Source: Plasmodiophora brassicae (taxonomy: Eukaryota). From it: a DNA stretch of 21,040 nt. A program made the position numbers and the translations under genes. The notes below the pieces were generated by a model. That model was not told the DNA's origin, ran no database searches, and worked only from the letters and a program-made list of their open reading frames with translations. Positions 2,477 through 21,040 of this stretch are shown here, one piece after another. The stretch's first letter is position 1, and the number at the start of each line of letters is the position of its first letter. Where the stretch lies: assembly GCA_036867785.1 (NCBI GenBank), contig CP145410.1:1922001-1943040 (forward strand). Reading direction: 5' to 3'.

Positions 2477-2907
2477 GACTCGATTGCCGTCGCCTATCCA
2501 GCATGAGGACCGGCAGCGCAGCAGGCATCATGGCGATACTCTGCTTCTCTGCAAGGTGGTGAAGGCCCATTAACCTGTTGTCTTTCGAACCGGCTGACAT
2601 TCATGTCGTTCCCGGCAGGCGCCAGCATTGCTGCTCAGAATCCAGGCGAGTTCGGAACCATCGTTGTTGCCGCGTCGGCCCCTGCTGGTACTGGTTTGAC
2701 GAATTGTGCATCTCCAGCCTGGCTGACATCCCCGCGGTATTCTGGCAGACACTGGCGATGCTGCTAAGAATCCTGACGAGTGCTGTGTCACCCCTGTTGC
2801 CGCCGTGCGCCCTTTCTGATGCTGGTCGGCAGGCGTCACGTAATCGACTTCCTGTTCTGGTCGACCTTCAGGCGACTGCAAGCTGCTTGAACCACTCCAT
2901 TCTGGTA

Positions 2908-3083
2908 TGTGCCGGCTCCAAGCTATAAGACAAGAATAGCTGTGATCCGGCTAGGCCGCCCTAAGAATGACGGACATGCACGGAGTGCGCACGGAGTCCG
3001 CACGGCGTACGTGGGAGCTGCAGGTCGGGGACACAGACGATTATACTACACGGCTGATATACCATCACCGTTGGGACGTCACA
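2908..3083 (+). repeat. 5' LTR of element 1 (176 bp; right boundary inferred)
   Basis: Starts TGTGCCGGC and ends GACGTCACA (7/9 inverted repeat). The following sequence, CACA-GAGATCTCTTG, parallels the proven boundary of element 2 (CACA-GAAGCTTCTTG). Leader to ATG is 47 nt versus 43 nt in element 2. Only the first 70 nt are confirmed by the second copy. Confidence 0.75.
2978..3010 (+). repeat. 3 x 11-bp tandem repeat inside the element 1 LTR
   Basis: GCACGGAGTGC GCACGGAGTCC GCACGGCGTAC. Confidence 0.85.
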
Positions 3084-3092
3084 GAGATCTCT
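3083..3092 (+). promoter_or_regulatory. Perfect 10-bp palindrome at the primer-binding-site position of element 1
   Basis: AGAGATCTCT begins on the last base of the inferred LTR. No TGG-initiated tRNA complement. Function inferred. Confidence 0.6.
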
Positions 3093-3130
3093 TGAACATC
3101 CTTTCGGGGAAGGTTTCAAAGAAGGACGCG

Positions 3131-6100
3131 ATGGTGGCCACCGCGCAGGAGATGCTGCTGGAAGATGACGTCGATGATCGACAACAAGGACAGAGCGTGC
3201 AAGGCTCAACGATCGTCCTGCAGATGAACAAGGCGCCGACCTTGAAGAGCATGGACCGCAAGGCCGTCACGACGTTCATGGCCGAGCTGAAGACGTATCG
3301 GAATCACTTCCGGGACGATCCGAATGCCAAGGGCCAGATCCCACGGTCAGTGAGGAGTATGATCGACCCCGGTCTGCTCAGGGCGATCTGCAAGTGGGAA
3401 CTCGGCACGGACGCCGAGGGGGTGACGGAGAGCGACCTGATGGACTGGATGAAGAGGCATCTGGAGCAGGATCGCTCGACGGACGCGAACATCGACCGGG
3501 AGATGCGGAAGCTGGCGATGAAGCTGACCATCACCACACCAGCGGCAAGGGTCGTGAACCTCGTGCAGCAGTACGAGGAATTGGTCGCGCGCAACGGGTG
3601 GCAGGACCTCTTCACGTCCCGCGAGGGACGGAAGAACCTGGTCAAGTACCTACTGGGTGCTGTGCGCCCATCCGGTTTACAAGCGCTCATGCGGACCCTC
3701 GTCATGAAGCGCCAGACCGATCTCCAGAAGGACCCTTTGGAATTCTATCGGGTGCTGAAGGAACGGGCTGCATCGTATGAGGAGACGATGTTGTACATGG
3801 AGCCGGGACGTGAGGATGGCAAGGGGAAGGGAAAGGTCAAACCCACCCCAAAGAAGCGAGGGGCGCAGACGGATGAAGGAGGCGATGGAGGCCGGGACAC
3901 GAAACGACACCGGAAGGACCTGCGATGTTTCAACTGTGACGAGGTTGGACATCCAGCGTTTCGTTGCCCGAAGAAGCCTACCAAGAAGCAGGTCGCAGAC
4001 CTGCTGAAGGATCGCCGCAAGGGGCCAACGGGAAGGGATGGACCCCGTAAGGCCAAATCTGATAAAGATGACGACTTGTCAGAGTACCCATGGCTTCCAG
4101 TGGTAGGAAGAGTGTCGGAGGGGGCGCAGAGGACAGGGGACCAAGTAGTCGTTCGTGTAAACGGACATGAGGAAGACTACGTTGGGGTTCTGGACAGTGG
4201 AGCGACATCGGTTGACGTTCTGATGCCATTGACCATAGCGCGCGAGCTAATGGAGCGGGACCCATTGTTAACAATGGAGAACCTCCAGAAGCCGGAAACG
4301 TTCTGTCTGGTAGACCGAGAAACGAAGCACACAGCCTACCATGTGATGATACTGGATCTGGGACTGACGACGACGGCAGGCGAACTGATCACTCGCCGGC
4401 GCCGATGCCTTGTATGGGACATTCCTGAAAAGGAAGTAATCCTAGGGGAGAGGCTGTTGGACGACTTGGGTATCCACCCAAAGAAGGCCCTGGACGTACT
4501 CATTAAGAGCACGCCGAAGAAGGGGAATGACGTCATGGATGAAGTGCACAATATGGCAAACGAGATGCCACCTCTCTGGGAAGGGGAGGAAGAGGAAACA
4601 GAGGATGTGAGGATCGGAACCGATTCCACAGACTCCCTGGAAAGGGAGATGGACGGGATGGTCGAGCGCGCATTGAGGAATGGCCTACCGCAAGCGATGG
4701 GGAAATCGCTTCGGAAACTCGTCAGAAGATATAGGGACGTTTGGCGTATGAGCATTGGACCTGATGGTCCAGCCAGGGTTACACCATTTGTCACGGAGCT
4801 GAAACCGGATGCGGAACCTTACAGGTGCCGAGCCAGAAAGTACAGTATGGAGGACAGTGCTTTCATGGAGGAATTCGTCGCCCAATTGAAGAAGTATGGC
4901 CTAGTCGTTGAAAACTACAACGCGAAGTGGGCTTCACCGGTGGTGGTGGTGACGAAGCCAGGGGGCGGAAAGCGGTTCTGTGTTGATCTCAGAGCTGTTA
5001 ATGCCAAATGTGTCGCCGTGGCGTGGCCTATGCCACATCAGGAGGCGATACTGAGGAACCTGGCAGGCTCGAGGTTCTGGTTTAAGCTAGACGCGTTCAA
5101 AGGCTTCTGGATGATGCCGCTGGATGAAGCGTGTCAGGAGATCTTCTCCTTCATGACAGATAAGGGGGTGTATAAGCCAACGAGGTCGATGCAGGGGGGA
5201 ATGAACTCCGCCCCTCAGTATCAAGGGAGGATGTTTGAGGTGTTCGGGGAACTTATGTTCCACAAACTAATCATATGGATCGATGATCTAATGGGGCATG
5301 CCCAAAGGGAGGATGATTGGTTCCGAACGTTGGAACGGACTCTGATGCTAGCCGAACGGCACAGCATCAAGTTCAACGTGGAGAAGTGTGAGCTCTTCAC
5401 AACAGAGGTTCGGTTCTGTGGAAGGATATTCACGCCAGAAGGGGTAAGGCACGATCCTGCTAGGATTGAGGCTTTAATGGCGATACCACAGCCGAGGACG
5501 GCAAGGGACTTGCAACAATTCCTTATGGCAACTCAGTGGATGAGTAGGTCCATCCCTGAGTACAACAGGAAGGTACACCTGTTACAGAGGATATACGAGG
5601 ATGCAATGAAGGACCAACCTGGCAGGACGAAAGCCATTGCCAGGAGGGTGCGATTGTGCAAATATGGATGGTCACCCGAACATGCGCTGGCATTCGAGAA
5701 ACTGAAGATGGCAGTGGCGGACACGGTCCAACTAGCGTACCCGCGAAAGGACCGGATCCAATGCCTATTCTCAGATGCAAATGAGGTTAACAGCGCGGCG
5801 GTAGTCACACAGATTCCGCCTGAGGACTTGGGTAAACCAGTGCATGGGCAGCGACATGAACCGCTGGGTTTCGTCGGACACAAGTTCGCGGGCCCAGAGC
5901 GGAACTGGTCCACGGTGGAGAAGGAAGGGTTCGCGATCAAGGATGGGATTGACAAACTGGACTATCTCGTTACAACCAACGAGCAGTTTCGTTTGTTTAC
6001 CGATCATAGGAATCTCGTGAGGATATTCTCACCAACGGACGTGTCAAAGCCAACGGCGCAGAAACTGCAACGATGGGCACTGGACATACAGAGGGTCAAC

Positions 6101-7798
6101 TACGTCATTGAACACATTGCGGGGGAGGACAATGTGTGGTCGGATCTTATGACGCGGTGGGGTGCACCGGACGGTGGGCCTGATGACCAGCACCTAGAGG
6201 TACGCACGATCAGGAGGATAACGCTTCAAATTGAGGACGGATATCGGGTACGGCCGTTACAAAGGAAGGAATTCCAATGGCCGACCGTGGACGAAATCCG
6301 TAAGGCTCAGAGGAAATGGCTCAGAGGAACGAAACGACCGAAGAATGGTGATGATCTCTTCGTCACAGGGAAGGGACAGGTGATCATACCAGACGAATGC
6401 AACGAGCTGAAGCTGCAGCTATGCGCTATTGCTCATGCGGGCGGAAACAGTGGGCATCTAGGACTGAAGGCCTCGTTGAGGAAGTTGGGGGAGTTCTGCC
6501 ATTGGGCACACTGCGATGAGGACATGAGGACGTTCTGCAACGCGTGTTTGAACTGTCTACCGACAAGGGGCGGGGTTAGGATTCCCAGGCCATTGGGAAC
6601 AGCTGTTCATGGTGTTAGGCCGAATCAGGTGATTCACTTGGATTGGCTATACATGATGGCGGCTCAGAAGGGCGGAAGACATGATCTGCAATGGAACCTG
6701 ATAATCAGGGATGATCTGTCTGGCATGGTCAAGATTACTCCTGACCATACACCCAATGCGGAAACCACTGTAGAGGCACTGCTCGAATGGAGGGCTATCT
6801 TCGGAACGTTTGAGTTGATGGTGTCAGACATGGCGTCTTGCTTTCTGGCAAACGTTGTGAAGGAACTGGCGCGTCGATGTGGATTTGCTCATCACCCGAC
6901 TGTTGCCTATGGGCATTACAGTAATGGATCAATTGAGGTGATCAACAGGAACTACTTGCAACTAGTCAGAGCACTTCTGTCTGAATTGCAGTGGGACAAA
7001 TACGATTGGCCATGGTTGAACCACAACATTGAACACACGATCAATCACAGGTCGCAGGCGCGTACCAACGGGAATGCGCCAGTGACAGTGATGATGGGAC
7101 GTCAACCAGACAACCCGCTGAAGCAAGTGTTCAAGAGGCCAGGGGATGAGAAGTATGGGGAAGCTACACTCTCAAAGGAGCATATTCAGGAGCTAGTCAT
7201 GCAATTGCAGACGTCGCTGAATGAAATGCACAAGGGAGCAGTGCAGCAATCGAAGAAAATCCGAGCCGTACATAGGAAGAGGAGCGACGCGTACCGACGA
7301 GCAACTGCACCGAACTTTCAGATCGGTGACTATGTACTCATCGGATTGCCTGAACCGGGTAAGGTTCCGGGCAAGAAGCTCTTTATGAAGTGGCGGGGCC
7401 TATATCAAATAACTGATAGCCACGAGAACTACACCTACGAGGTGAGGAATATGTTCAACGAGACGGACACTCGAACCGTTCACGGGGACCGCGTTCGCCT
7501 CTATGAACATGGCAAAGTGAATGCCACTGAGGAACTGAAGCGACAGATGGATTATGACAATGAGCGTTTCGCCATTGAAGTCTTCAAGGACTGCAGGCAC
7601 AGTCCGGAGACAGGGGAATTGGAATTGTTGATCGGATGGAAGGGTTTCTCTGAAGCGGAGGATTCATGGGAGCCAATCTGCAGGTTGGCGATGGATGTAC
7701 CGAAGCTGGTGAAGGCACATGCCGCCAGGATGAGGAAGGAGAAACATCACCTTGCTGATGAGGTTAAGGAGTTACTTAAGGCGGAAGGAGTCCAGTAG
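3131..7798 (+). CDS. Gag-Pol polyprotein with C-terminal chromodomain (about 1555 aa from the first ATG)
   Basis: Zinc knuckle CFNCDEVGHPAFRC; protease LDSGA; RT LDAFKGFW...MQGGMNSA...WIDD; RNase H FSDA/EKEGFAI/FTDHRNL; integrase HHCC (AHAGGNSGH...CLNC) and D,D,E (IHLDW, VSDMA, SIEVIN); chromodomain LIGWKGFSEAEDSWEP. The ORF-track start at 2909 is a GTG inside the LTR; the first ATG is at 3131. Confidence 0.95.
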   Translation: MVATAQEMLLEDDVDDRQQGQSVQGSTIVLQMNKAPTLKSMDRKAVTTFMAELKTYRNHFRDDPNAKGQIPRSVRSMIDPGLLRAICKWELGTDAEGVTESDLMDWMKRHLEQDRSTDANIDREMRKLAMKLTITTPAARVVNLVQQYEELVARNGWQDLFTSREGRKNLVKYLLGAVRPSGLQALMRTLVMKRQTDLQKDPLEFYRVLKERAASYEETMLYMEPGREDGKGKGKVKPTPKKRGAQTDEGGDGGRDTKRHRKDLRCFNCDEVGHPAFRCPKKPTKKQVADLLKDRRKGPTGRDGPRKAKSDKDDDLSEYPWLPVVGRVSEGAQRTGDQVVVRVNGHEEDYVGVLDSGATSVDVLMPLTIARELMERDPLLTMENLQKPETFCLVDRETKHTAYHVMILDLGLTTTAGELITRRRRCLVWDIPEKEVILGERLLDDLGIHPKKALDVLIKSTPKKGNDVMDEVHNMANEMPPLWEGEEEETEDVRIGTDSTDSLEREMDGMVERALRNGLPQAMGKSLRKLVRRYRDVWRMSIGPDGPARVTPFVTELKPDAEPYRCRARKYSMEDSAFMEEFVAQLKKYGLVVENYNAKWASPVVVVTKPGGGKRFCVDLRAVNAKCVAVAWPMPHQEAILRNLAGSRFWFKLDAFKGFWMMPLDEACQEIFSFMTDKGVYKPTRSMQGGMNSAPQYQGRMFEVFGELMFHKLIIWIDDLMGHAQREDDWFRTLERTLMLAERHSIKFNVEKCELFTTEVRFCGRIFTPEGVRHDPARIEALMAIPQPRTARDLQQFLMATQWMSRSIPEYNRKVHLLQRIYEDAMKDQPGRTKAIARRVRLCKYGWSPEHALAFEKLKMAVADTVQLAYPRKDRIQCLFSDANEVNSAAVVTQIPPEDLGKPVHGQRHEPLGFVGHKFAGPERNWSTVEKEGFAIKDGIDKLDYLVTTNEQFRLFTDHRNLVRIFSPTDVSKPTAQKLQRWALDIQRVNYVIEHIAGEDNVWSDLMTRWGAPDGGPDDQHLEVRTIRRITLQIEDGYRVRPLQRKEFQWPTVDEIRKAQRKWLRGTKRPKNGDDLFVTGKGQVIIPDECNELKLQLCAIAHAGGNSGHLGLKASLRKLGEFCHWAHCDEDMRTFCNACLNCLPTRGGVRIPRPLGTAVHGVRPNQVIHLDWLYMMAAQKGGRHDLQWNLIIRDDLSGMVKITPDHTPNAETTVEALLEWRAIFGTFELMVSDMASCFLANVVKELARRCGFAHHPTVAYGHYSNGSIEVINRNYLQLVRALLSELQWDKYDWPWLNHNIEHTINHRSQARTNGNAPVTVMMGRQPDNPLKQVFKRPGDEKYGEATLSKEHIQELVMQLQTSLNEMHKGAVQQSKKIRAVHRKRSDAYRRATAPNFQIGDYVLIGLPEPGKVPGKKLFMKWRGLYQITDSHENYTYEVRNMFNETDTRTVHGDRVRLYEHGKVNATEELKRQMDYDNERFAIEVFKDCRHSPETGELELLIGWKGFSEAEDSWEPICRLAMDVPKLVKAHAARMRKEKHHLADEVKELLKAEGVQ

Positions 7799-7984
7799 GC
7801 TAGTCATGCTTTTTTCCCGGATGCGCGCTGGGTTATTTTAATGCCGACGGCCATGTGACGACAGAAGCCAAAACTGTGTTCTACGAAGATTGAGACTTAA
7901 TTATGTTAATTAGACTATATTAAGGAGAAGACATGATTAGGATACACCACCACTGAAGACACCTGCAAGGAGGAGCATTTCGTT

Positions 7985-7996
7985 GAAGGAGGGGAA
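7985..7996 (+). other. Polypurine tract of element 1
   Basis: GAAGGAGGGGAA immediately precedes the TGT of the 3' LTR. Confidence 0.9.
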
Positions 7997-8066
7997 TGTG
8001 CCGGCTCCAAGCTATAAGACAAGAATAGCTGTGATCCGGCTAGGCCGCCCTAAGAATGACGGACAT
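7997..8066 (+). repeat. Truncated 3' LTR of element 1 (first 70 nt)
   Basis: Identical to 2908-2977. Identity stops exactly where the element 2 LTR begins at 8067. Confidence 0.85.
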
Positions 8067-8263
8067 TGTGCTAACGCCGCCGCTGCCCACTACGGGGGCG
8101 GTCGGTCGCAAGAGTCGGCGCCTGGTGATATAACGAACTGATGTATTTGGACAGGATCGTCACAGCAAGGGCCGCTGCGGGGTCGAGTACGGTCATGATC
8201 ATGTGACCGGGTGGCAGCAGCATCTGAGCAGCATCATCTGAGTACTGGTACTCTGGATGAACA
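8067..8263 (-). repeat. 3' LTR of element 2 (197 bp)
   Basis: Base-for-base identical to 13206-13402; reads TGTTCATCC...TTAGCACA on the minus strand. Confidence 0.97.
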
Positions 8264-8269
8264 CTCCCC
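8264..8269 (-). other. Short polypurine tract of element 2
   Basis: Minus strand reads TAA(stop)-CAC-GGGGAG-TGTTCA(LTR). Confidence 0.7.
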
Positions 8270-8272
8270 GTG

Positions 8273-11200
8273 TTAGAAATCTGCTAACAGTCGTGAGCAG
8301 AGCGGGTCTCCTTCGGCTTGTCGTTCGAGGAAGGCTCTGACGATATCAGGAACATCGGCCGCCATGACCGAGTAAGGTTCCCATGAATTGTCGGTGGCCT
8401 CGAATCCGATCCAGTTGATCAGTAGTTCAGTGTCACCTGACGTAGAATTGACTCGAATGTCCTCGACTGCGTTGACTTGGTAAGCCACGCCGGTGAGCGC
8501 GATGTTGTGCTTCAGGGAAGAGGTGACATTCAAGTGCGCATCTGCATAGAACATTAAGCGCTGGGCGTGTACATCTGAGATATGATCAGTCAAGAGATCT
8601 CGAACTCGATACACCCAGTCGTTGATGGTGTCGATAATCTGGGCAGGTCCAGTCCAGTTGTACTCGGACTTGGAGTGCTTGCCATGGTTGGCCACGAGAA
8701 CATAGTCGCCCGTCGTGAAGTTGATCTCGCGAACATTGCGTCGGCGACGCCGGGCGCGTTGCTTGAGATCACGTAGATGGGTGCGTGTACGTGCCACTTC
8801 TTTGTGCATGTCCTCGAGAGAATCGGTAAGTTCCGTCGTCATTTCCTTGAGACGGTCAGGGGTCAACGGTACGTCGATAACCGCGTCGATGCGTTTGTTG
8901 AAGATAATCGAGATAGGTGTCGAGGGTGGCAAACCCGTAAACATCGTGACAGGCGCGTAGCCCACACTTGATCGAACAGTGTGATTTACCGTCATGTTGA
9001 TCAGCGGAAGGACATACGGCCAATCCTGGAATGGAAGATTTAGCTCGGAGAGGAGGGACTTCAGCAGAAAGAGAAGCCGCTTGTTGACAACCTCAACCGT
9101 GCCGTTCGCCCAAGGTGTGTAGGCAGTTGTGAAATGATGGTTGCAGTGTAACCGGCTATTAAGCTCGGCGATAACCGCGTTTTTGAAGTGTGTGCCGCGG
9201 TCAGAGACATGTTGGAAAACAATGCCGAAACGTTTGAACCAATCCAGAAGAGATTCGGCGACAACGCTGTGATCCGCGAATTGACAAGGAATTAACTCGA
9301 CGAATGCCGTGGCGTCGTCCTTCAGAACCAGAACATAACGAAGTTGATGAGAATCGCCTGGACGAGGTTTGGATAAGAAAAGAAAGTCATAGTGGATGAC
9401 CTTATTGGGCTTGTCCGCATGCATAGCCGTGCCATAAGGTCGGGGGATCATCGAATCTTTGTTGCGTAGGCAGTGTAAGCATTTGTCCACAAATGCACGA
9501 ACAAAGGAATCGAGATCAGGCCACCAGAAGAGTTGCGCGATGCTCGAAATAGTCGATGCAGCAAGTTGATGACCAGACAGTCCCATATGTGAAATCACTG
9601 CGATGCGTAGCTGCAGTGCATGTGATGGTACCCAGAGTTGATTGTCTGGAGTACGCCAGCCAGATTCCGGGCTAAGGTGGAGAGACATGTCCCCTTCGAG
9701 TTGGAGAATATCAGAAACGGCAGATAGGTCGTGTTGGCGAATGTAGTCGGTCTGAGCGTTACTAATCTCGTCGGCAGACGGCCAGATAAACTCATCGGTC
9801 ATCTTGTAATCGTCGAAGTCAAGATTAATTGCCATATGACGAATAGAACGGAACGAGGGAGGGGAAAATGAGGACAATGGTTGCAGGGCGACGCCCCAAC
9901 GCGTGGCGAGGTCGGCCCAAACGTTGTCCTCCCCAGCAATGTGCTCAATGTGAAAATCTAGGTCGATAATCTGAAGTCGCCAGCGCTCCAAGCGATCGCC
10001 GGTCGTCCGACTAATTCGTGCAACCGAGGCAGGGTTCAGAATGAAAACCAAATTACGGTGGTCTGTGAAGATTCGAAGTGCCAACTTTGACATAGAGATG
10101 AAGTGTCTGAGGCGATAGCAGCCTTCGATGATGGCGTAGGCCTCCTTCTCAATGGTCGCCCACTTCAATTGAGAACCACGGAATGTCCCCGAGATGAACG
10201 ACAAAGGTTCGTGGTGTTGCTCACCGTACGGGAGATCAATATCTTCCGGAGGGATCTGCGACAGGAAAACAGACCAGAAACGGTCACTCGCATCCGGAAA
10301 GAGACACATGATCCATTCGTCCTTGGGGTGCGCCAGCGTCATGGCCTCCGATAGACGATGCTTCAGAGAATTGAAACTGGTGAGATGGTCAGTGGTCCAG
10401 CCGATGTCGGCTAAACGAACTCGACGTAGATGTGATTTCTTCAGACTGCTGACAGAACGAGAAGCGGACAGAAGTAGATCCTGCAGCGGATGTACGTGTG
10501 CCGCGAATTGAGGAATAACAGAACGGACCCAATTGAGGCCCGAGAGGAACTGTTGAAGATCAGCAGCCGTGATAGGAGTTGATAGATCGTGCAAGGCGTT
10601 GAGATACGAGCGATCGAACGACACTCCATCAGCGGATATAACGCGACCGCACCATGTCACTGAAGTGAGATATAACTGGCAGCGATCAGGGTTGAGTTTA
10701 ACTCCAAACTCGTCGAAAGCGTTGAGAAGAGATTCGAGTGTGTCCATGTAGGCTCCGAATCCAGATACGTAGCCGAGGATATCGTCGATCCAGAGTAGGG
10801 CGCAGATATATAGAAGTTTCCCCAACACCTGTTGCATTCCCGCCTGGAACGCAAACACGCAATCAGCAATTCCCTGGATGATGCGCCTGGGTGTAAACGT
10901 GGCGATGTGCGTCATGAACGAGCAGGCCTCCTGCGAATCAGGGTGCAACGGAAATTGCCAATAGCCTTTAAAGGCATCGAACAGCATGAAGATGGTCGCG
11001 GAACGTAGGTAGGTCAGGATGATGTCGATGTGAGGCATCGGCCATGCAATGCGTTCGGTCTGTTTGTTGACGGCTTCATTGATGTCGACGGTCAGCCGAT
11101 GGCCGCGAACCTCCGTGTCCTTCTTGTCGACGACCAGACACGGCGACGCGTACCTGCTGTGCGGATTGCGGTACACAAAATCGTTTTCCGCCAAGGTCCC

Positions 11201-13162
11201 TACATGATCATCCATGAATTTTTGGTGTTCGAGGGTATACCTTCGTGTTCGGCAACGGACAGGACGAGCATCTGCTTTGAAGTGTAGTTTCAGTGGACTT
11301 ACCTTCGCAGGTGGATCACGGCCAAGCTTCGTTCGCCATATGTCTTTGTGTCGATTGACAGTTGTGCGTAGACGCGGGACTTGATCGTTAGGGAAACCGG
11401 AGTCAGTTGCACGTTGTATCATCCGGTCTATTGCCCTGTCCACGTCTGTATCGGAGTGTTCTCCGATTTCGACATCATAGTCGTCACCCGGATCATTGGT
11501 GTCCAATTGGGGCTCATGATCGCGAGTTGTTCCACTTACCTCCGGGTGTCTTACCGCTCTCATCGTGATCCCTTGACCACCTGGGGCGTGACGTTCCGGG
11601 GTCGGATCCGCTTCGATGATGATAGGACCATTTGCCTCGATTAACATCTCCTTCAGTTGTGTAGCTGGATTGATACCCAACGCGTCCAGTTCCGGGGCTC
11701 CTAAAAGGACAATGTCATCAGATAGGTCTTCGCGACATACGTTGATTTCCCGCCCGCGTAGATGTGCAGGTTTGCCATGCGAAGGTGGGACAATGGTGAT
11801 GTCCACGATCGCTGTGGCGACAATTGTTGTCGTAGCCCCGATCGTTGCAAGTTTCGCCTCCGTTGGATGGTCGAACACTTTGACTGGGACATGCTGGATG
11901 GCTTGAATCCGTAGCAGTTGCGATTGCGAAATGACGGTCTTCGTCGCACCACTATCGGCTTCGAATGGAAGGTCGAGCGAGTTCTGGAAGCGAAGTCTCA
12001 TAGGGGACGGTGTTGACGGCGACGGCGGGCCCATGCGCTTTGCCGTGTCTGCGTTGCCCTTACTCTCCTCCTTCTCTTTGCGCTCTTTCTGGAACTTTTC
12101 AATGGCAGCTTTGCGTTCTCCTTGAGTTGCCTTCGGGCACACTTGGACCCAGTGCTGCTCCTTGCAGATTAGGCAACCTGCCTTTGGAGGATCCTTACCT
12201 TCGAAACGTTTTCGGATGTGCTCGGGGATGTCCCTCGATTCGTCTTTCGTTTGCGATGTGGACGATTGAGCTGTCTTCAGTCCGATCGGATTTGTCGGAT
12301 GCTTGCCGCCATTCCTATTCGGAGCAACAACGTCCTTACCTTTCTTACCTGCAGGTGGGGACATGGTCTGCGCTGGAGACTTCTTCTTCTCAGCTTGCAG
12401 CCGGAAGTGTTTGTCCTGCTCTTTGGCAAGACGGTCGACGAGGTCGAAGAATTTGAGCTCGTCCTTCTCAGCGTCCCTGCACCCTCCGAACTCGATCGCG
12501 CGTTCGACTAGAACCGCAAGGTCAGTGGGACGGATACCTCCGCGTAATACCTTGATCTTGCGCTTGGTTCCTTTCGTTCCTTTGGCGTATGTGTCTTGTA
12601 GCCCATAGTCGTCGATTAGCTCATCGAACTTGGCGAAGAAAGACGTGACACGTTCCTCAATACTCTTGATTGACAGGTTCATGACCACTGTCTTCGTGAG
12701 AAGCGCCTTGATGTCTGTCGAACTCTCGACATCAGCCTCCCTGCGTTGGACTGACCTCAAGTAGCTCATGATGTCGCCATCCGTGATCGTGCTGGCGGGT
12801 TGACGTAGGCGATATTTCGACATCCCTCTGAGGACGTCCTCGGTAATGCATGACTTCACCGTTGGCGGATGAATATCCTCCTTGTAGATCAGTCGGCGCT
12901 CGTTAACGATCTCGACGTGTTTCCTATATTTCTTGAGGAAATCGTTAATTCCGTCCTTGGCCGTAAGGCTCAGGGTACGTAGGATGGGCGGTTTCAAAGG
13001 CATAAAGATCGGGCTCTTACCGTGCAGGTTTGTTGACTGAAGCCCTCGATCGATTTCGTCATCTGTCGACGATTCATGCTCCTTGGCCTCGGCGTCGGAG
13101 TTGGTCCTGGCGTCGTCCTCCATCTGTAGACGAACGGGCGCTCTGCGGCCACCTCCTGCCAT
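8273..13162 (-). CDS. Gag-Pol polyprotein with C-terminal chromodomain (1629 aa)
   Basis: Knuckle CLICKEQHWVQVC; protease ADSGA; RT FDAFKGYWQ...IIQG...WIDD; RNase H FPDAS/EKEAYAI/FTDHRNL; integrase HMGLSGH...CLHC, IHYDF, VSDRGTHF, TVEVVN; GPY/F-like WTGPAQI; chromodomain LINWIGFEATDNSWEP. Confidence 0.97.
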   Translation of the reverse strand: MAGGGRRAPVRLQMEDDARTNSDAEAKEHESSTDDEIDRGLQSTNLHGKSPIFMPLKPPILRTLSLTAKDGINDFLKKYRKHVEIVNERRLIYKEDIHPPTVKSCITEDVLRGMSKYRLRQPASTITDGDIMSYLRSVQRREADVESSTDIKALLTKTVVMNLSIKSIEERVTSFFAKFDELIDDYGLQDTYAKGTKGTKRKIKVLRGGIRPTDLAVLVERAIEFGGCRDAEKDELKFFDLVDRLAKEQDKHFRLQAEKKKSPAQTMSPPAGKKGKDVVAPNRNGGKHPTNPIGLKTAQSSTSQTKDESRDIPEHIRKRFEGKDPPKAGCLICKEQHWVQVCPKATQGERKAAIEKFQKERKEKEESKGNADTAKRMGPPSPSTPSPMRLRFQNSLDLPFEADSGATKTVISQSQLLRIQAIQHVPVKVFDHPTEAKLATIGATTTIVATAIVDITIVPPSHGKPAHLRGREINVCREDLSDDIVLLGAPELDALGINPATQLKEMLIEANGPIIIEADPTPERHAPGGQGITMRAVRHPEVSGTTRDHEPQLDTNDPGDDYDVEIGEHSDTDVDRAIDRMIQRATDSGFPNDQVPRLRTTVNRHKDIWRTKLGRDPPAKVSPLKLHFKADARPVRCRTRRYTLEHQKFMDDHVGTLAENDFVYRNPHSRYASPCLVVDKKDTEVRGHRLTVDINEAVNKQTERIAWPMPHIDIILTYLRSATIFMLFDAFKGYWQFPLHPDSQEACSFMTHIATFTPRRIIQGIADCVFAFQAGMQQVLGKLLYICALLWIDDILGYVSGFGAYMDTLESLLNAFDEFGVKLNPDRCQLYLTSVTWCGRVISADGVSFDRSYLNALHDLSTPITAADLQQFLSGLNWVRSVIPQFAAHVHPLQDLLLSASRSVSSLKKSHLRRVRLADIGWTTDHLTSFNSLKHRLSEAMTLAHPKDEWIMCLFPDASDRFWSVFLSQIPPEDIDLPYGEQHHEPLSFISGTFRGSQLKWATIEKEAYAIIEGCYRLRHFISMSKLALRIFTDHRNLVFILNPASVARISRTTGDRLERWRLQIIDLDFHIEHIAGEDNVWADLATRWGVALQPLSSFSPPSFRSIRHMAINLDFDDYKMTDEFIWPSADEISNAQTDYIRQHDLSAVSDILQLEGDMSLHLSPESGWRTPDNQLWVPSHALQLRIAVISHMGLSGHQLAASTISSIAQLFWWPDLDSFVRAFVDKCLHCLRNKDSMIPRPYGTAMHADKPNKVIHYDFLFLSKPRPGDSHQLRYVLVLKDDATAFVELIPCQFADHSVVAESLLDWFKRFGIVFQHVSDRGTHFKNAVIAELNSRLHCNHHFTTAYTPWANGTVEVVNKRLLFLLKSLLSELNLPFQDWPYVLPLINMTVNHTVRSSVGYAPVTMFTGLPPSTPISIIFNKRIDAVIDVPLTPDRLKEMTTELTDSLEDMHKEVARTRTHLRDLKQRARRRRRNVREINFTTGDYVLVANHGKHSKSEYNWTGPAQIIDTINDWVYRVRDLLTDHISDVHAQRLMFYADAHLNVTSSLKHNIALTGVAYQVNAVEDIRVNSTSGDTELLINWIGFEATDNSWEPYSVMAADVPDIVRAFLERQAEGDPLCSRLLADF

Positions 13163-13196
13163 TAAGTGAGTTCGTTTGCTTGGGGCTCTTTGCGCA

Positions 13197-13206
13197 AGAA
13201 GCTTCT
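13197..13206 (-). promoter_or_regulatory. Perfect 10-bp palindrome at the primer-binding-site position of element 2
   Basis: AGAAGCTTCT begins on the last base of the 5' LTR (minus strand) and is followed by a second palindrome, TTGCGCAA (13190-13197). No TGG tRNA complement. Function inferred. Confidence 0.65.
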
Positions 13207-13402
13207 GTGCTAACGCCGCCGCTGCCCACTACGGGGGCGGTCGGTCGCAAGAGTCGGCGCCTGGTGATATAACGAACTGATGTATTTGGACAGGATCGTC
13301 ACAGCAAGGGCCGCTGCGGGGTCGAGTACGGTCATGATCATGTGACCGGGTGGCAGCAGCATCTGAGCAGCATCATCTGAGTACTGGTACTCTGGATGAA
13401 CA
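13206..13402 (-). repeat. 5' LTR of element 2 (197 bp)
   Basis: Identical to 8067-8263. Confidence 0.97.
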
Positions 13403-13918: not shown

Positions 13919-13987
13919 AACGCCTGGGCAACAGATACTTGGTCGGCCACGATACGAGGAATATCCTAGATCGATCACGGCCAAAGC

Positions 13988-16000
13988 ATGATGGCGAACG
14001 TTGTCCTGTTGTTGAGTGTGGTTGGATGCGCAACGGCGTCCTGTCCCGGGGATGCGCCAGTGAAAACACCGACCACGAATGGGAAATTCCTGTTCGCCCA
14101 CTATATGATCTTCTCGCCGTCAACCAACTCTACCATGGCCGGGTTCCAGCGCGATATTCTCCTTGCGCAATCGGCCGGCATTGACGGGTTCGCATTGAAC
14201 CTGGCCGTCTGGAGCGGGTCGCCGGTATACCGGCAAAGGGCAACTTTGATATTTGACGCCGCAGACCAGCTGAATACCGGATTCCAGCTGATGTTCAGTC
14301 TTGACATGAGCAAGAACATGCCACAGGCCGATATCGTTAGCATTCTGACTACGTTCTCGTCCCGATCCAGTCAGGCGTACCGAAATGGAAAACAGATGCT
14401 GTCAACATTCGTCGGCCAGGCGATTCCGGGCGTCGGGAACGTTAGCAATTGGTGGGCGTCCGCTTTCTCGCAGGCATCATTTATCACCGGCAAAGGCGTA
14501 TACTTCATCCCGTTCTTCGTCCCGTCGGGTGGAAATTCCACCACGGGTCTTCCTCGTGTCATTGATGTAACGAATATCATCGATAAGTACCCAGTCGTCG
14601 ATGGATTGTTCAGCTGGAATTTGTTGGGATACCCGAACCCCTCCAAAGGTCTTGGCAAACTCCTAGGCGCCACGATTCCAGACAACGAGGTCAACTACCG
14701 CTTGGGATGTAACCAGCGATCACGCGCGTTCATGGCCTCCATTGGGCCATGGTTCTCAACACACGACAGGCCGAAGTACATACTCTGTCGCTGCTTCCTT
14801 ACCATCGTTCACTGATTTCTTTCAAACAGTCACAATGGAATTTATGGCAATTATCGAGGGCCCACAATGTGGATGGAACGGTGGGAGACTATATATGAGA
14901 CGCAGCCCGATCTCGTCGAAATCGTCACTTGGAACGATTACGCAGAATCGTCGTACATCGGGCCACAAGCCCCGATGATCTACTCGTCAGAATGCCCCCC
15001 TGCCACAAATTACAGCCACGACGCATATTTGGAGTTGACCCGATACTTCAGTACGCGATGGAAGACTGGGGCGTACCCTGTAATTGGGCGTGAGAAGTTA
15101 TTCATCTTCTATCGGACACATTCGAAGAATGCTGTGCCCATGGCAGATCCGTACAATCCGAACCCGGTCAACAACAGCCAGGTGATCGACGACATGCTCT
15201 ATGTTGCCACGATGCTGTATACGTCGGCCATGCTGACAATGAATTCGGGATCGAATACGTCGACGGTGAGGGCTCCCACTGGATTCAGCATTTTTTCGCT
15301 TGGCCAGGATCAAGGATTGCAATCCGCTGTTCTGAAACGGAACGGCGATGTTATACTATCCGTTGTCGGTGATCTGCCGTTTAGCAACCACATCGTGTAC
15401 CGGAACTTTAATGTATATTCGAAGTTCGTGCAAGCCGACAAATGTGTTCTTGCGGCAAAAACATCAACGAAGCGGCAGATAATGCAGTCGACCGCAACGC
15501 GGACTCCTGTACTGGCAACGGAATCGTTGAAGAAGCCCATATCTACTCAAGATTTCGCAAAGCCATCCCACACAACAATAGGCTTGAGACGGGCAACGAA
15601 ATCAATTCGAAAAGTGGTATCGACTCGACATTCTCATGTCTCTACAAAGACGGGAAACCGTACAGCAATCCTGTTGTCACCGATTACAAAATCAGCGCGA
15701 AGCGCAATGTCGATTCGCGCGCTCCACTTCAAATCGCGACGATCTACAACATGGATAGTTCACAACCAGAGATCCAGAACAATGCAAAATTTGGTCCCGT
15801 CGAATCAGGTTCGGGTGCTCAACACAGGCGTACGAAAGTCCACGGCACTGGCGAACAAGGCACCGAAACCTATATCGACGTCGTCTCAGCCCTTTGTGAA
15901 TCACGCAAAAAGGAACGCGACGAGTTTCGCCAGTCGGGCATCGAGAACTGATTCGCTCCAAGTCATATTCCTCCTCTACGTGATTGCCGAAATCCTGTAG
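13988..16000 (+). CDS. Secreted glycoside hydrolase family 71 (alpha-1,3-glucanase/mutanase-like); exons 13988-14775 and 14830-16000, about 652 aa
   Basis: Signal-peptide-like N-terminus. GH71 motifs FAHYMI, DILLAQSAGIDGFALN, LMFSLDM, LSTFVG, VDGLFSW, PWFSTH, VEIVTWNDYAESSYIGP, FYRTHSK. A 54-nt GTACAT...CTGAT...AAACAG intron (14776-14829) joins the two ORF-track ORFs in frame. Confidence 0.9.
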
Positions 16001-16699
16001 GATGTCAAAAAAGGACCAACAAGACGGCTGGTTTAGGGGGCCTCTATCTAAAATCTGTTCAAATACAGCCTGCTAAAATAAGAAGCGTCACAAGTCGCCC
16101 CGACCCGCACCAGCATACATCGGCCACTGCCACATGACCACGCCTGCGCAGCGACCACTACGACCCGCCCAGCTCACATGCATATTCGGCACCCTGCAGC
16201 CCAGCATCTCGCCAGCTAGCGAGTTTAAAAACAGGAGCAGAACGGTGCCTACAAGAAATTTGAACGGACGCGCCTTGTACGATTGGACAGCGTCATCTAC
16301 CCTGCACTGGGACGAAGGAGCACGTCCAGAACCAGGCGCCGCCGGTTCACTGCATGTTATAACAAAGAGTGACAAGGACGCGTTAACACATGAACATGTC
16401 AGTGGGCTGGATATTCCTGGTCAGCTACCGTCCTGCTCGCTGTCTTTGTCGTGCTCTTAACGATCGTTCTTCGAGTAATCCTTTCACTGTCAGGTAAATA
16501 CGGCCAGCGCGTTGACTACCTCAGTGCGAGCGCTCAATACACGGGCGGGGTGGTGCGATGATCTTTTACGACTTGGTGATCTATTGTAGCCTCGGCGGAC
16601 CGGGCGCCGAAACTGCAGCGGAGTCCGCCGCCTCTCCCCGGTTCCCCCGCCAGCATCGGCATCGCCACCTCGTCGCCCATCGTCCGCCGGCCTTTACCC

Positions 16700-19666: not shown

Positions 19667-20706
19667 TCAGACAATATCGTTCGGCCGCGTTGGTATAAGG
19701 CTTTCCTTGATGTCGTATACGCGCTTGACCTCCTCCCAGAGACGCATATCCATCTGGACGATGGACTGCGTAGGCACATGACCGCTCTTGAGCTCCTCGT
19801 TATCCGGAGGCGTCTGATACGTGACGCGAAGTTCGCCGTCGTCGTCGACCTGGATCTGGGCATGCCCACTGCCGACCAGGAACGATAGGTCGAACAGGTT
19901 CTCGACAGTCTGCCCGAACGACACAGGGTTGACAATGAGCCTGAAGAACGGGTATCCAGTTGGCGCCGACTTCAAGATCTTGTGCAGGGTCGCCACTCGC
20001 GCGTCAGTCTGTGTTTGGACCAGGGTGGTAGCCGGTGCCTCAACACGATCGACGTGGACCGCATCGGTGTCCGGCGCCTCCCGACGGCGCTTTCGCGCTC
20101 GAGTCTTCTCTGCCGGTTCCGCTCCCGCCGTGTCCATCGTCAACAGGCCCGGCATGAAGTCGCAGGTGCGCACCGACACCAGGCAGTTACTCCCGTCCTT
20201 ACCCAGCCGAACCCAGTCGATTGATGCGCCACGTTCGCGCACGTCTTCGTCATCATCGTCGGCCATGTCCATCGAGAATTCAGACGCAATCCTCGCTATG
20301 AAGTCCTACAGCAGCGGTTAGGACGCATGCGACGGCATCGCTATCAGGACCCTGGTCTGGAGACGTACGTCAACGGAGACGAGGCTGAACTTCTCGGCCA
20401 TTAGTCGCGTACTCTCGGCAGTCAACGATGCCATGAGTGACAGTTCCTTGGCCTCGATGTTCGCCTCCGAAGGGTGCAGCACTACACAGACCGGATCAGT
20501 CTTCGCAGTGGGCTCCGACACGTCGCCCGACCTCGCTCGTGGATGGCATCATGCTGAGCGTGGAGTTCTTCCAGTACGGACGCGTCGCCAGCGAATATGG
20601 CGGCTCGCGACTCTTTCGTCCTCTTGACGAGCGCGCGCAGGTCCTGCCGCACGACGATCCGCTCGGCATCGGTCTGCTTCGTGCTATCGCCGAGCAGCCT
20701 GCGGGG
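19667..20706 (-). CDS. NSE4: Smc5/6 kleisin subunit Nse4/EID family, 5'-incomplete; exons ~20706-20532, 20481-20369, 20305-19667 (at least 308 aa)
   Basis: C-terminal FFRLIVNPVSFGQTVENLFDLSFLV is the Nse4_C signature; middle IDWVRLG; N-terminal QTDAERIVVRQDLRAL...VLHPSEANIEA resembles the Nse4 N-helix. Introns 20482-20531 (50 nt) and 20306-20368 (63 nt, GTACGT...CTAAC...TAG) keep the frame. No in-frame ATG between the telomere and 20434. Confidence 0.88.
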
Positions 20707-20707
20707 C

Positions 20708-21040
20708 TTAGGGTTTTAGGGTTTTTAGGGTTTTTTAGGGTTTTTTAGGGTTTTTTAGGGTTTTTTAGGGTTTTTTAGGGTTTTTTAGGGTTTTAGGGTT
20801 TTAGGGTTTTTAGGGTTTTAGGGTTTTTAGGGTTTTAGGGTTTTAGGGTTTTAGGGTTTTAGGGTTTTAGGGTTTTAGGGTTTTAGGGTTTTAGGGTTTT
20901 AGGGTTTTAGGGTTTTAGGGTTTTAGGGTTTTAGGGTTTTAGGGTTTTAGGGTTTTAGGGTTTTAGGGTTTTAGGTTTTTAGGGTTTTAGGGTTTTAGGG
21001 TTTTAGGGTTTTGGGGTTTTTAGGGTTTTTTAGGGTTTTT
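20708..21040 (+). repeat. Telomeric repeat array, mainly TTTTAGGG
   Basis: G-rich strand runs 5'->3' to the window end. Proximal variants are TTAGGG, T5AGGG and six T6AGGG units (20731-20790). Confidence 0.98.

Follow-up and report, generated by a model that had tools for sequence, protein, structure and literature searches.

A likely telomere-capped truncation within the first exon of NSE4 in Plasmodiophora brassicae

Results

Gene content of the window

We analyzed a stretch of 21,040 nucleotides of the Plasmodiophora brassicae genome (hereafter the window; assembly GCA_036867785.1, contig CP145410.1, positions 1,922,001 to 1,943,040 of the forward strand). The window ends in a telomere array, and directly proximal to the array lies a three-exon gene on the minus strand that encodes NSE4, the kleisin of the Smc5/6 complex (Table 1). 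NSE4 is followed on its proximal side by a convergent phosphatidylserine decarboxylase gene (PF02666) and then, further proximally and in this order, by genes for a WS/DGAT acyltransferase and a GH71 glycosyl hydrolase and by two retrotransposons of the Ty3/gypsy type. The region is not a typical subtelomere made up of repeats only. Rfam and tRNA scans of the window gave no match, and in particular Rfam detected no telomerase RNA in it.

Several features of the proximal part are recorded here in their own right. The two LTR retrotransposons adjoin back to back (window 2904-13402) and encode polyproteins that are 30% identical; the identical LTRs of the second suggest that it was inserted recently. 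The GH71 gene (alpha-1,3-glucanase family, window 13970-16000) is read in two ORFs of the same frame that are split by a stop at 14813-14815. The positions of the GH71 Pfam profile continue over the split (2-194, then 203-374), and the stop most likely sits in a short intron of a gene that is not a pseudogene. A nested inverted repeat, a long hairpin or foldback, occupies 933-1158, where no ORF is recognised by Pfam: its inner arms of 47 nt are 96% complementary and lie 67 nt apart, and its flanking arms of 33 nt are 88% complementary.

Table 1. Coordinates of the features described in the window (X1, X3, X8 and X11 are public sequencing runs)
Feature	Position (nt)	Strand	Description
Retrotransposon 1	2904-8066	+	74-nt terminal direct repeats, 99% alike; ORF of 1635 aa
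Retrotransposon 2	8067-13402	-	197-nt LTRs, 100% identical; ORF of 1651 aa with RT, RNase H, integrase and chromodomain
NSE4 exon 3	19667-20305	-	Nse4_C domain; stop TGA at 19669-19667
NSE4 intron 2	20306-20368	-	63 nt, GT..AG; skipped in X8 and X11
NSE4 exon 2	20369-20481	-	carries the first in-frame ATG of the window copy, 20434 (Met103)
NSE4 intron 1	20482-20531	-	50 nt, GT..AG; spliced out in X8 and X11, retained in the DNA contigs of X1 and X3
NSE4 exon 1 remnant	20532-20704	-	last base of codon 29 and codons 30-87 (RRLLGDSTKQTDAERIVVRQDLRAL...); conserved N-terminal kleisin helix included
Junction bases GGC	20705-20707	+	foreign to the intact gene and to the canonical repeat; intact form CGC (two of three bases agree)
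Telomere array	20708-21040	+	G-rich strand, 5' to 3', to the last base of the window

The telomere array

The final 333 bases of the window are tandemly repeated, with a period of 8, 39.2 copies and 95% matches according to TRF. A unit-by-unit parse yields 39 units, 24 of which are the canonical TTTTAGGG. The array opens with one unit each of T2AG3, T4AG3 and T5AG3 and six units of T6AG3; thereafter T4AG3 predominates, with few T5 or T6 units. Two further units are odd, namely AGG at 20969 and TGGGG at 21009. The telomere repeat of P. brassicae is T4AG3 in the available text of two reports (PMC11191646, PMC6823432). The array is of this T4AG3 type, has the correct polarity and reaches the final base of the window, where a physical end of the DNA and an end of the sequence look the same. 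Unique coding sequence is joined directly to the published telomere repeat of the species, and the pattern is not one of chance.

The NSE4 copy next to the array

The translation of exon 3 (19667-20305) matches the Pfam family Nse4_C (PF08743) over profile positions 2-89 of 89, with an E-value of 3.2e-24 and 85.4 bits against a cutoff of 26. It is 100% identical to the corresponding part of P0001, a 336-aa NCBI protein named 'Non-structural maintenance of chromosomes element 4 [Plasmodiophora brassicae]', on which Nse4_C is likewise detected. For the N-terminal part of NSE4 no Pfam family was found at E <= 0.001, either with exons 1 and 2 alone or with P0001. Residues 46-328 of P0001 align to residues 39-328 of human EID3 (9lwi_D; E 7.3e-15), an alignment that takes in the N-terminal helical region. 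An alignment of P0001, the window exon and 11 homologues, the latter hand-picked from the best 150 of 1279 relatives with E <= 0.001, shows two arginines of this region, R48 and R52, to be invariant in all 13 sequences. Kleisins of this family span the heads of Smc5 and Smc6 and bind Nse1 and Nse3. In common with the NSE4/EID3 kleisins (PDB 9lwi_D, 7tve_G, 7ymd_A), the window gene has a winged-helix Nse4_C domain at the C-terminus, a helical N-terminal region that keeps the conserved arginines and a length of about 300-340 aa; in contrast, the window copy has neither its initiation codon nor its arginine-rich tail of 29 residues. Among JGI metagenome contigs, P0001 as a query gave 125 pattern matches and no confirmed locus, and a 25-base stretch of exon 1 gave no match.

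Spliced by its coordinates, the window copy comprises 308 codons. The first of these spans the junction and encodes P where P0001 has R29, and the other 307 residues are all identical to residues 30-336 of P0001 (307/307). The annotated P. brassicae NSE4 of 336 aa starts 29 codons further upstream. The cluster of P0001 contains a second 336-aa form, found in other P. brassicae assemblies and different at 2 residues, as well as two fragments of 201 aa. Both full-length forms begin with MDQEDRGRQPDGQAGRRRRSERQDRERARRRLLGDS; P0001 and P0002 start with MDQEDRG... and have RRLLGDS at residue 30. Absent from the window copy are the promoter, the 5' UTR, the ATG, codons 1-28 and most of codon 29. The lost N-terminal tail of 29 residues is arginine-rich and unconserved, and on the sequence comparison the window copy has lost its start and no conserved domain.

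A first-pass annotation of this DNA had described an exon 1 frame that stays open into the telomere and meets a TAA within the repeats. This is the case: the minus-strand frame is open over 20482-20715 and is closed upstream by the TAA at 20718-20716. None of the ATGs of exon 1 is in frame, the three present (at 20669, 20552 and 20549) being out of frame. The first in-frame ATG had correctly been placed at 20434 and corresponds to Met103 of the annotated NSE4. The initiation codon and upstream transcription start of a functional gene are therefore missing, as no in-frame ATG precedes Met103 and the repeats stand 3 bases from the retained coding sequence.

RNA-type reads contain the intact first exon

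We compared the window with public reads in the form of Logan contigs from four runs, two of DNA (X1 and X3) and two of RNA type (X8 and X11); the latter were taken as RNA-derived because their contigs are spliced. X1 is the best holder of the words of the window, with a share of 0.97. The share is 0.80 in X7 and, X11 aside, in X9-X19, and X20-X24 have next to none of the words.

Both NSE4 introns are spliced out in the contigs of two of the four runs compared, X8 and X11. The GT..AG boundaries of both introns, their skipping in these contigs and the 307 identical residues bear out the earlier description of the remaining gene as intact, with clean introns. The contigs of X8 and X11 show no other letter against the window up to 20704, after which 116 and 301 letters, respectively, are unlike the window. 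The consensus of the first 30 letters beyond 20704 starts with CGCGCTCGCT, and its reverse complement reads in frame as ...SERQDRERAR, the missing residues of NSE4. Because these contigs run colinearly through 20704 into the missing codons, the break is located in exon 1.

The first-pass annotation had also pointed to an AG at 20700-20699, the coordinates of which are correct, and had noted that CAG followed by G resembles a branch point plus acceptor. RNA contigs (X8, X11) and DNA contigs (X1, X3) alike are colinear with the window to 20704, five bases beyond this AG. We rejected the candidate acceptor; the site is plain coding sequence, within codons R30-R31.

These contigs also bear on whether the window copy could be a functional allele, which the first-pass annotation had offered as one of its alternatives. 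Telomere-initiated C-strand transcripts would in that case be translated from a non-AUG start, the CTG at 20697, or be trans-spliced, and the dosage of NSE4 would be tied to the state of the telomere. The CTG (20697-20695) is indeed in frame, 10 nt from the repeats. R48, R52 and the whole EID3-aligned region lie downstream of the break, and five of the 11 picked homologues (P0010, P0013, P0026, P0028 and P0037) themselves begin just about 4-12 residues before the conserved arginine. However, the RNA-type contigs of both runs (2/2) carry ordinary upstream exon sequence and not telomere repeats (CCCTAAAA); all their 5' ends are of the ordinary intact form, although contigs can hide rare forms and a rare transcript could be missed. 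In addition, an ordinary ATG-initiated gene is present in the species, the C-strand repeat has a TAA in all three frames, and the three bases between the array and the ORF offer no space for a promoter. Expression of the window copy from the telomere finds no support here, and we consider it extremely improbable.

DNA reads contain the junction

In the DNA run X1, a contig of 4257 nt with a depth of 546 terminates exactly at 20704. A second X1 contig, of 58 nt, covers 20675-20732 and is identical to the junction of the window; its depth is 143 and its ratio to the flank 0.26, although word depth is a poor measure of frequency for very short contigs adjacent to telomeres. Word-graph contigs end at forks. 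The end of the long contig at 20704 therefore marks a fork, and the reads of X1 have two continuations after this position. Intact and telomere-capped forms appear to coexist in X1, with the intact form in the majority, a conclusion drawn from the contig end at 20704 and the depth ratio and not from a displayed X1 contig of the intact branch. X1 is possibly the source sample of the assembly containing the window; if so, it supports the reads and does not represent an independent isolate.

The X1 junction contig weighs against an artefact, that is, a chimeric molecule or a mis-join that placed repeats beside exon 1 of NSE4. An assembly join had been among the possibilities raised earlier, and there are reasons to take it seriously: the feature stands at the extreme end of the sequence, its odd units (T2, T5, T6, AGG, TGGGG) are of the type produced by homopolymer errors, and X1 may be the same data as the assembly. 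Yet the 58-nt contig built from X1 reads reproduces the junction without a difference at a word depth far beyond that of one chimeric molecule. Both X1 and X3 also have telomeric contigs with units of the T5 and T6 type, and the telomere at the junction has the correct polarity. An artefact is, in our judgement, very unlikely.

The second DNA run, X3, has the window allele (0 other letters) at a depth of 51, and the piece that ends at 20704 corresponds to letters 3153-4257 of a 12,333-letter contig. From these lengths the contig seems to continue, unforked, for about 8 kb beyond the site. Although its record is longer than the matching piece, it has no listed loose end at 20704, and none of the contigs listed for X3 bridges the junction. 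The NSE4 contigs of X1 and X3 both start 3152 letters to the left of 19600 (about position 16448 of the window), the word graph forking at the same place in both; a repeat or a shared polymorphism may be the cause, and nothing repetitive is visible there in the window.

The depths in X1 and X3 are relevant to another explanation, a fixed chromosome end combined with a duplication. Each genome would then contain two copies of a segment that measures 4 kb or more, perhaps all 21 kb, one internal with an intact NSE4 and the other terminal and truncated. Two or more identical copies, one of them ending in a telomere, would account for the fork at 20704 and for a lower depth at the junction than in the flank. 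Moreover, other contexts of the string that starts the array (GGGGCTTAGGG, see below) have depths of 95-136 in X1 against 143 at the junction, which fits a single-copy depth of about 100-140. On the other hand, a simple duplication predicts a ratio of about 0.5, and the ratio observed is about half of that. In X3, which has the same allele, a single contig seems to pass through the site without a fork. Searches for a second NSE4 protein found none (1 match among 228 candidates), and in a representative protein library P0001 itself was alone above 50% identity, the next match, P0005, being 43% identical. We regard a duplication as unlikely.

Bases at the junction

On the plus strand, the native sequence of the gene ends in ...CTGCGG at 20704 and is followed by GGC and then TTAGGG. 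Every intact-form contig stops matching past 20704, and the consensus of their loose ends starts with CGCGCT. The GCGGGGC that the first-pass annotation had likened to a telomerase seed is accordingly composite: its ...GCGG is native, whereas its GGC was added or has one changed base.

The string GGGGCTTAGGG (GGGGC-TTAGGG-T4AG3-T5AG3-T6...) is not confined to the junction: both X1 and X3 have other contigs where it comes after T-rich telomere-like units. Where such units precede the sequence of the window from 20703 or 20704 on (GGGGCTTAGGGTTTTAGGG...), the contigs have depths of 135.6, 106.6 and 94.7 in X1 and of 68.9, 10 and 7.6 in X3. In one X3 contig, GGGGCTTA is tandemly repeated. A non-canonical module thus seems to recur in the telomere arrays of P. 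brassicae, and their T-runs seem to vary in length.

The recurrence of GGGGCTTAGGG indicates that GGC is not random filler. As the string recurs in other telomeric contigs, we prefer to place the join after 20704, with an overlap of 2 bases (GG) to the string. Ranked below this is a join after 20707 with one substitution (CGC to GGC) and a telomere that begins at 20708. The repeats abut unique sequence that goes on elsewhere past 20704, in the contigs of X8 and X11 and, by length, in that of X3, as is characteristic of de novo telomere addition. The register at the join consists of the two-base overlap and then GGC, T2AG3, T4, T5 and six T6 units, and is not canonical T4AG3. The cap may have been copied from an existing telomere, by capture or break-induced replication, or made by telomerase in a variant-producing register; either fits.

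Discussion

A probable broken and capped chromosome copy

We think it likely that the window ends in a telomere-capped terminal truncation within exon 1 of NSE4, and that the NSE4 copy next to it is a dead, 5'-truncated allele that forms a minority beside intact copies. In one chromosome copy, a double-strand break within exon 1, or resection into it, would have removed the start of the gene, from the promoter to most of codon 29, together with all distal sequence. A telomere would then have capped the broken end at the GG overlap, the cap reading GGC-TTAGGG-T4AG3-T5AG3-(T6AG3)x6 before passing into canonical T4AG3. Left without start codon or promoter, the truncated NSE4 would most likely be silent, and its function would be supplied by the intact copies, the form seen in RNA. 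The healed form would be a variant within the sample, carried by a sub-clone or by some of the nuclei, and the assembler would have output it as a sequence ending in a telomere. It probably persists as a minority, beside intact nuclei or as an extra truncated copy of the chromosome.

A break healed in intron 1 or exon 1, with an intact copy elsewhere, had been one of the alternatives of the first-pass annotation. It is supported, and narrowed to exon 1, by the 336-aa NSE4 of other assemblies, the continuation of the X8 and X11 contigs and the fork in X1. A gene-dense context that reaches up to the repeats is likewise predicted by a truncation. The available text of one report describes 2-7 genotypes in a single gall (PMC12052817), and a mixed sample is therefore to be expected.

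Two points count against a healed break as set out above. NSE4 is essential in yeasts, so a clone with the truncated chromosome alone should be unfit, and the truncated form, at a quarter of the depth, is surprisingly abundant unless intact copies complement it. In addition, the non-canonical first repeats would not be expected from simple telomerase healing of the kind described in P. falciparum.

Read at face value, the depth ratio would mean that, in one DNA sample, roughly one chromosome copy in four is without a working gene for the Smc5/6 kleisin and without all that lies distal to it. The nuclei concerned might persist only through the cytoplasm that they share with intact nuclei in the multinucleate plasmodium, or the break might be recurrent, at a fragile or programmed site that would receive the same GGC-TTAGGG-T4-T5-T6 starter each time. 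We hold this to be distinctly unlikely.

Comparison with known healed ends

The event would be of an already well-known kind, the terminal truncation capped by a neotelomere, which is known in yeast as well. According to the available text of Calhoun et al. 2017 (PMC5550746), healed breaks in P. falciparum are recognised by truncated coding regions with telomere repeats fused to them. The likeness extends to a haploid parasite, repeats fused to the coding region of the truncated gene, distal loss and short homology at the join, as far as that text describes them (PMC5550746). In its account, all nine healed ends open with GGGTT, in a single canonical register (PMC5550746); here, by contrast, GGC and T2, T4, T5 and T6 units stand at the join, the string recurs in other telomeric contigs, and capture is equally possible. 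Furthermore, the P. falciparum genes are dispensable subtelomeric ones, whereas here a core chromosome-maintenance gene is affected and an intact form coexists.

Human terminal deletions, in the parts of two reports available to us (PMC3136441, PMC4427916), are similar in that unique sequence abuts repeats after de novo addition or capture. They differ in being constitutional or tumour events in a diploid; at the P. brassicae end only telomere-like units are visible, and no subtelomeric donor sequence. The programmed breakage of nematodes and ciliates, as presented in excerpts of two further sources (PMC11347171, PMC13368176), likewise couples a break to telomere addition, with broken and unbroken forms in one organism. 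Here, in contrast, we see a single site, inside an exon of an essential gene, with no break motif, reciprocal product or developmental link seen.

Implications for Plasmodiophora

A search of full-text literature for Plasmodiophora with 'telomere healing' gave no match, and the sole match for Plasmodiophora with 'telomere addition' concerns ciliate introns, to judge by its title and the start of its abstract. In a combined literature search, Plasmodiophora appeared in none of the best 15 of 367 papers that had two or more of the terms. The locus offers a base-resolved, telomere-capped chromosome break in Plasmodiophora. Annotators should mark the window copy of NSE4 as a remnant, lacking its 5' part, at a healed end, and should not use it as evidence for non-AUG or telomere-driven expression. 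More generally, sequenced 'isolates' can harbour structurally different chromosome ends, which bears on telomere-to-telomere claims and on whether small telomere-bearing contigs are kept or discarded.

Two points are of specialist interest: the non-canonical starter common to arrays, and the apparent coexistence of an intact and a truncated chromosome where a core genome-maintenance gene is concerned. If the truncation does affect about a quarter of the chromosome copies, clubroot plasmodia would tolerate, or even generate, mosaic truncations of chromosome ends, and these would be a source of the reported karyotype polymorphism. The starter string shared by several arrays is a concrete handle on how telomeres are built or copied in P. 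brassicae.
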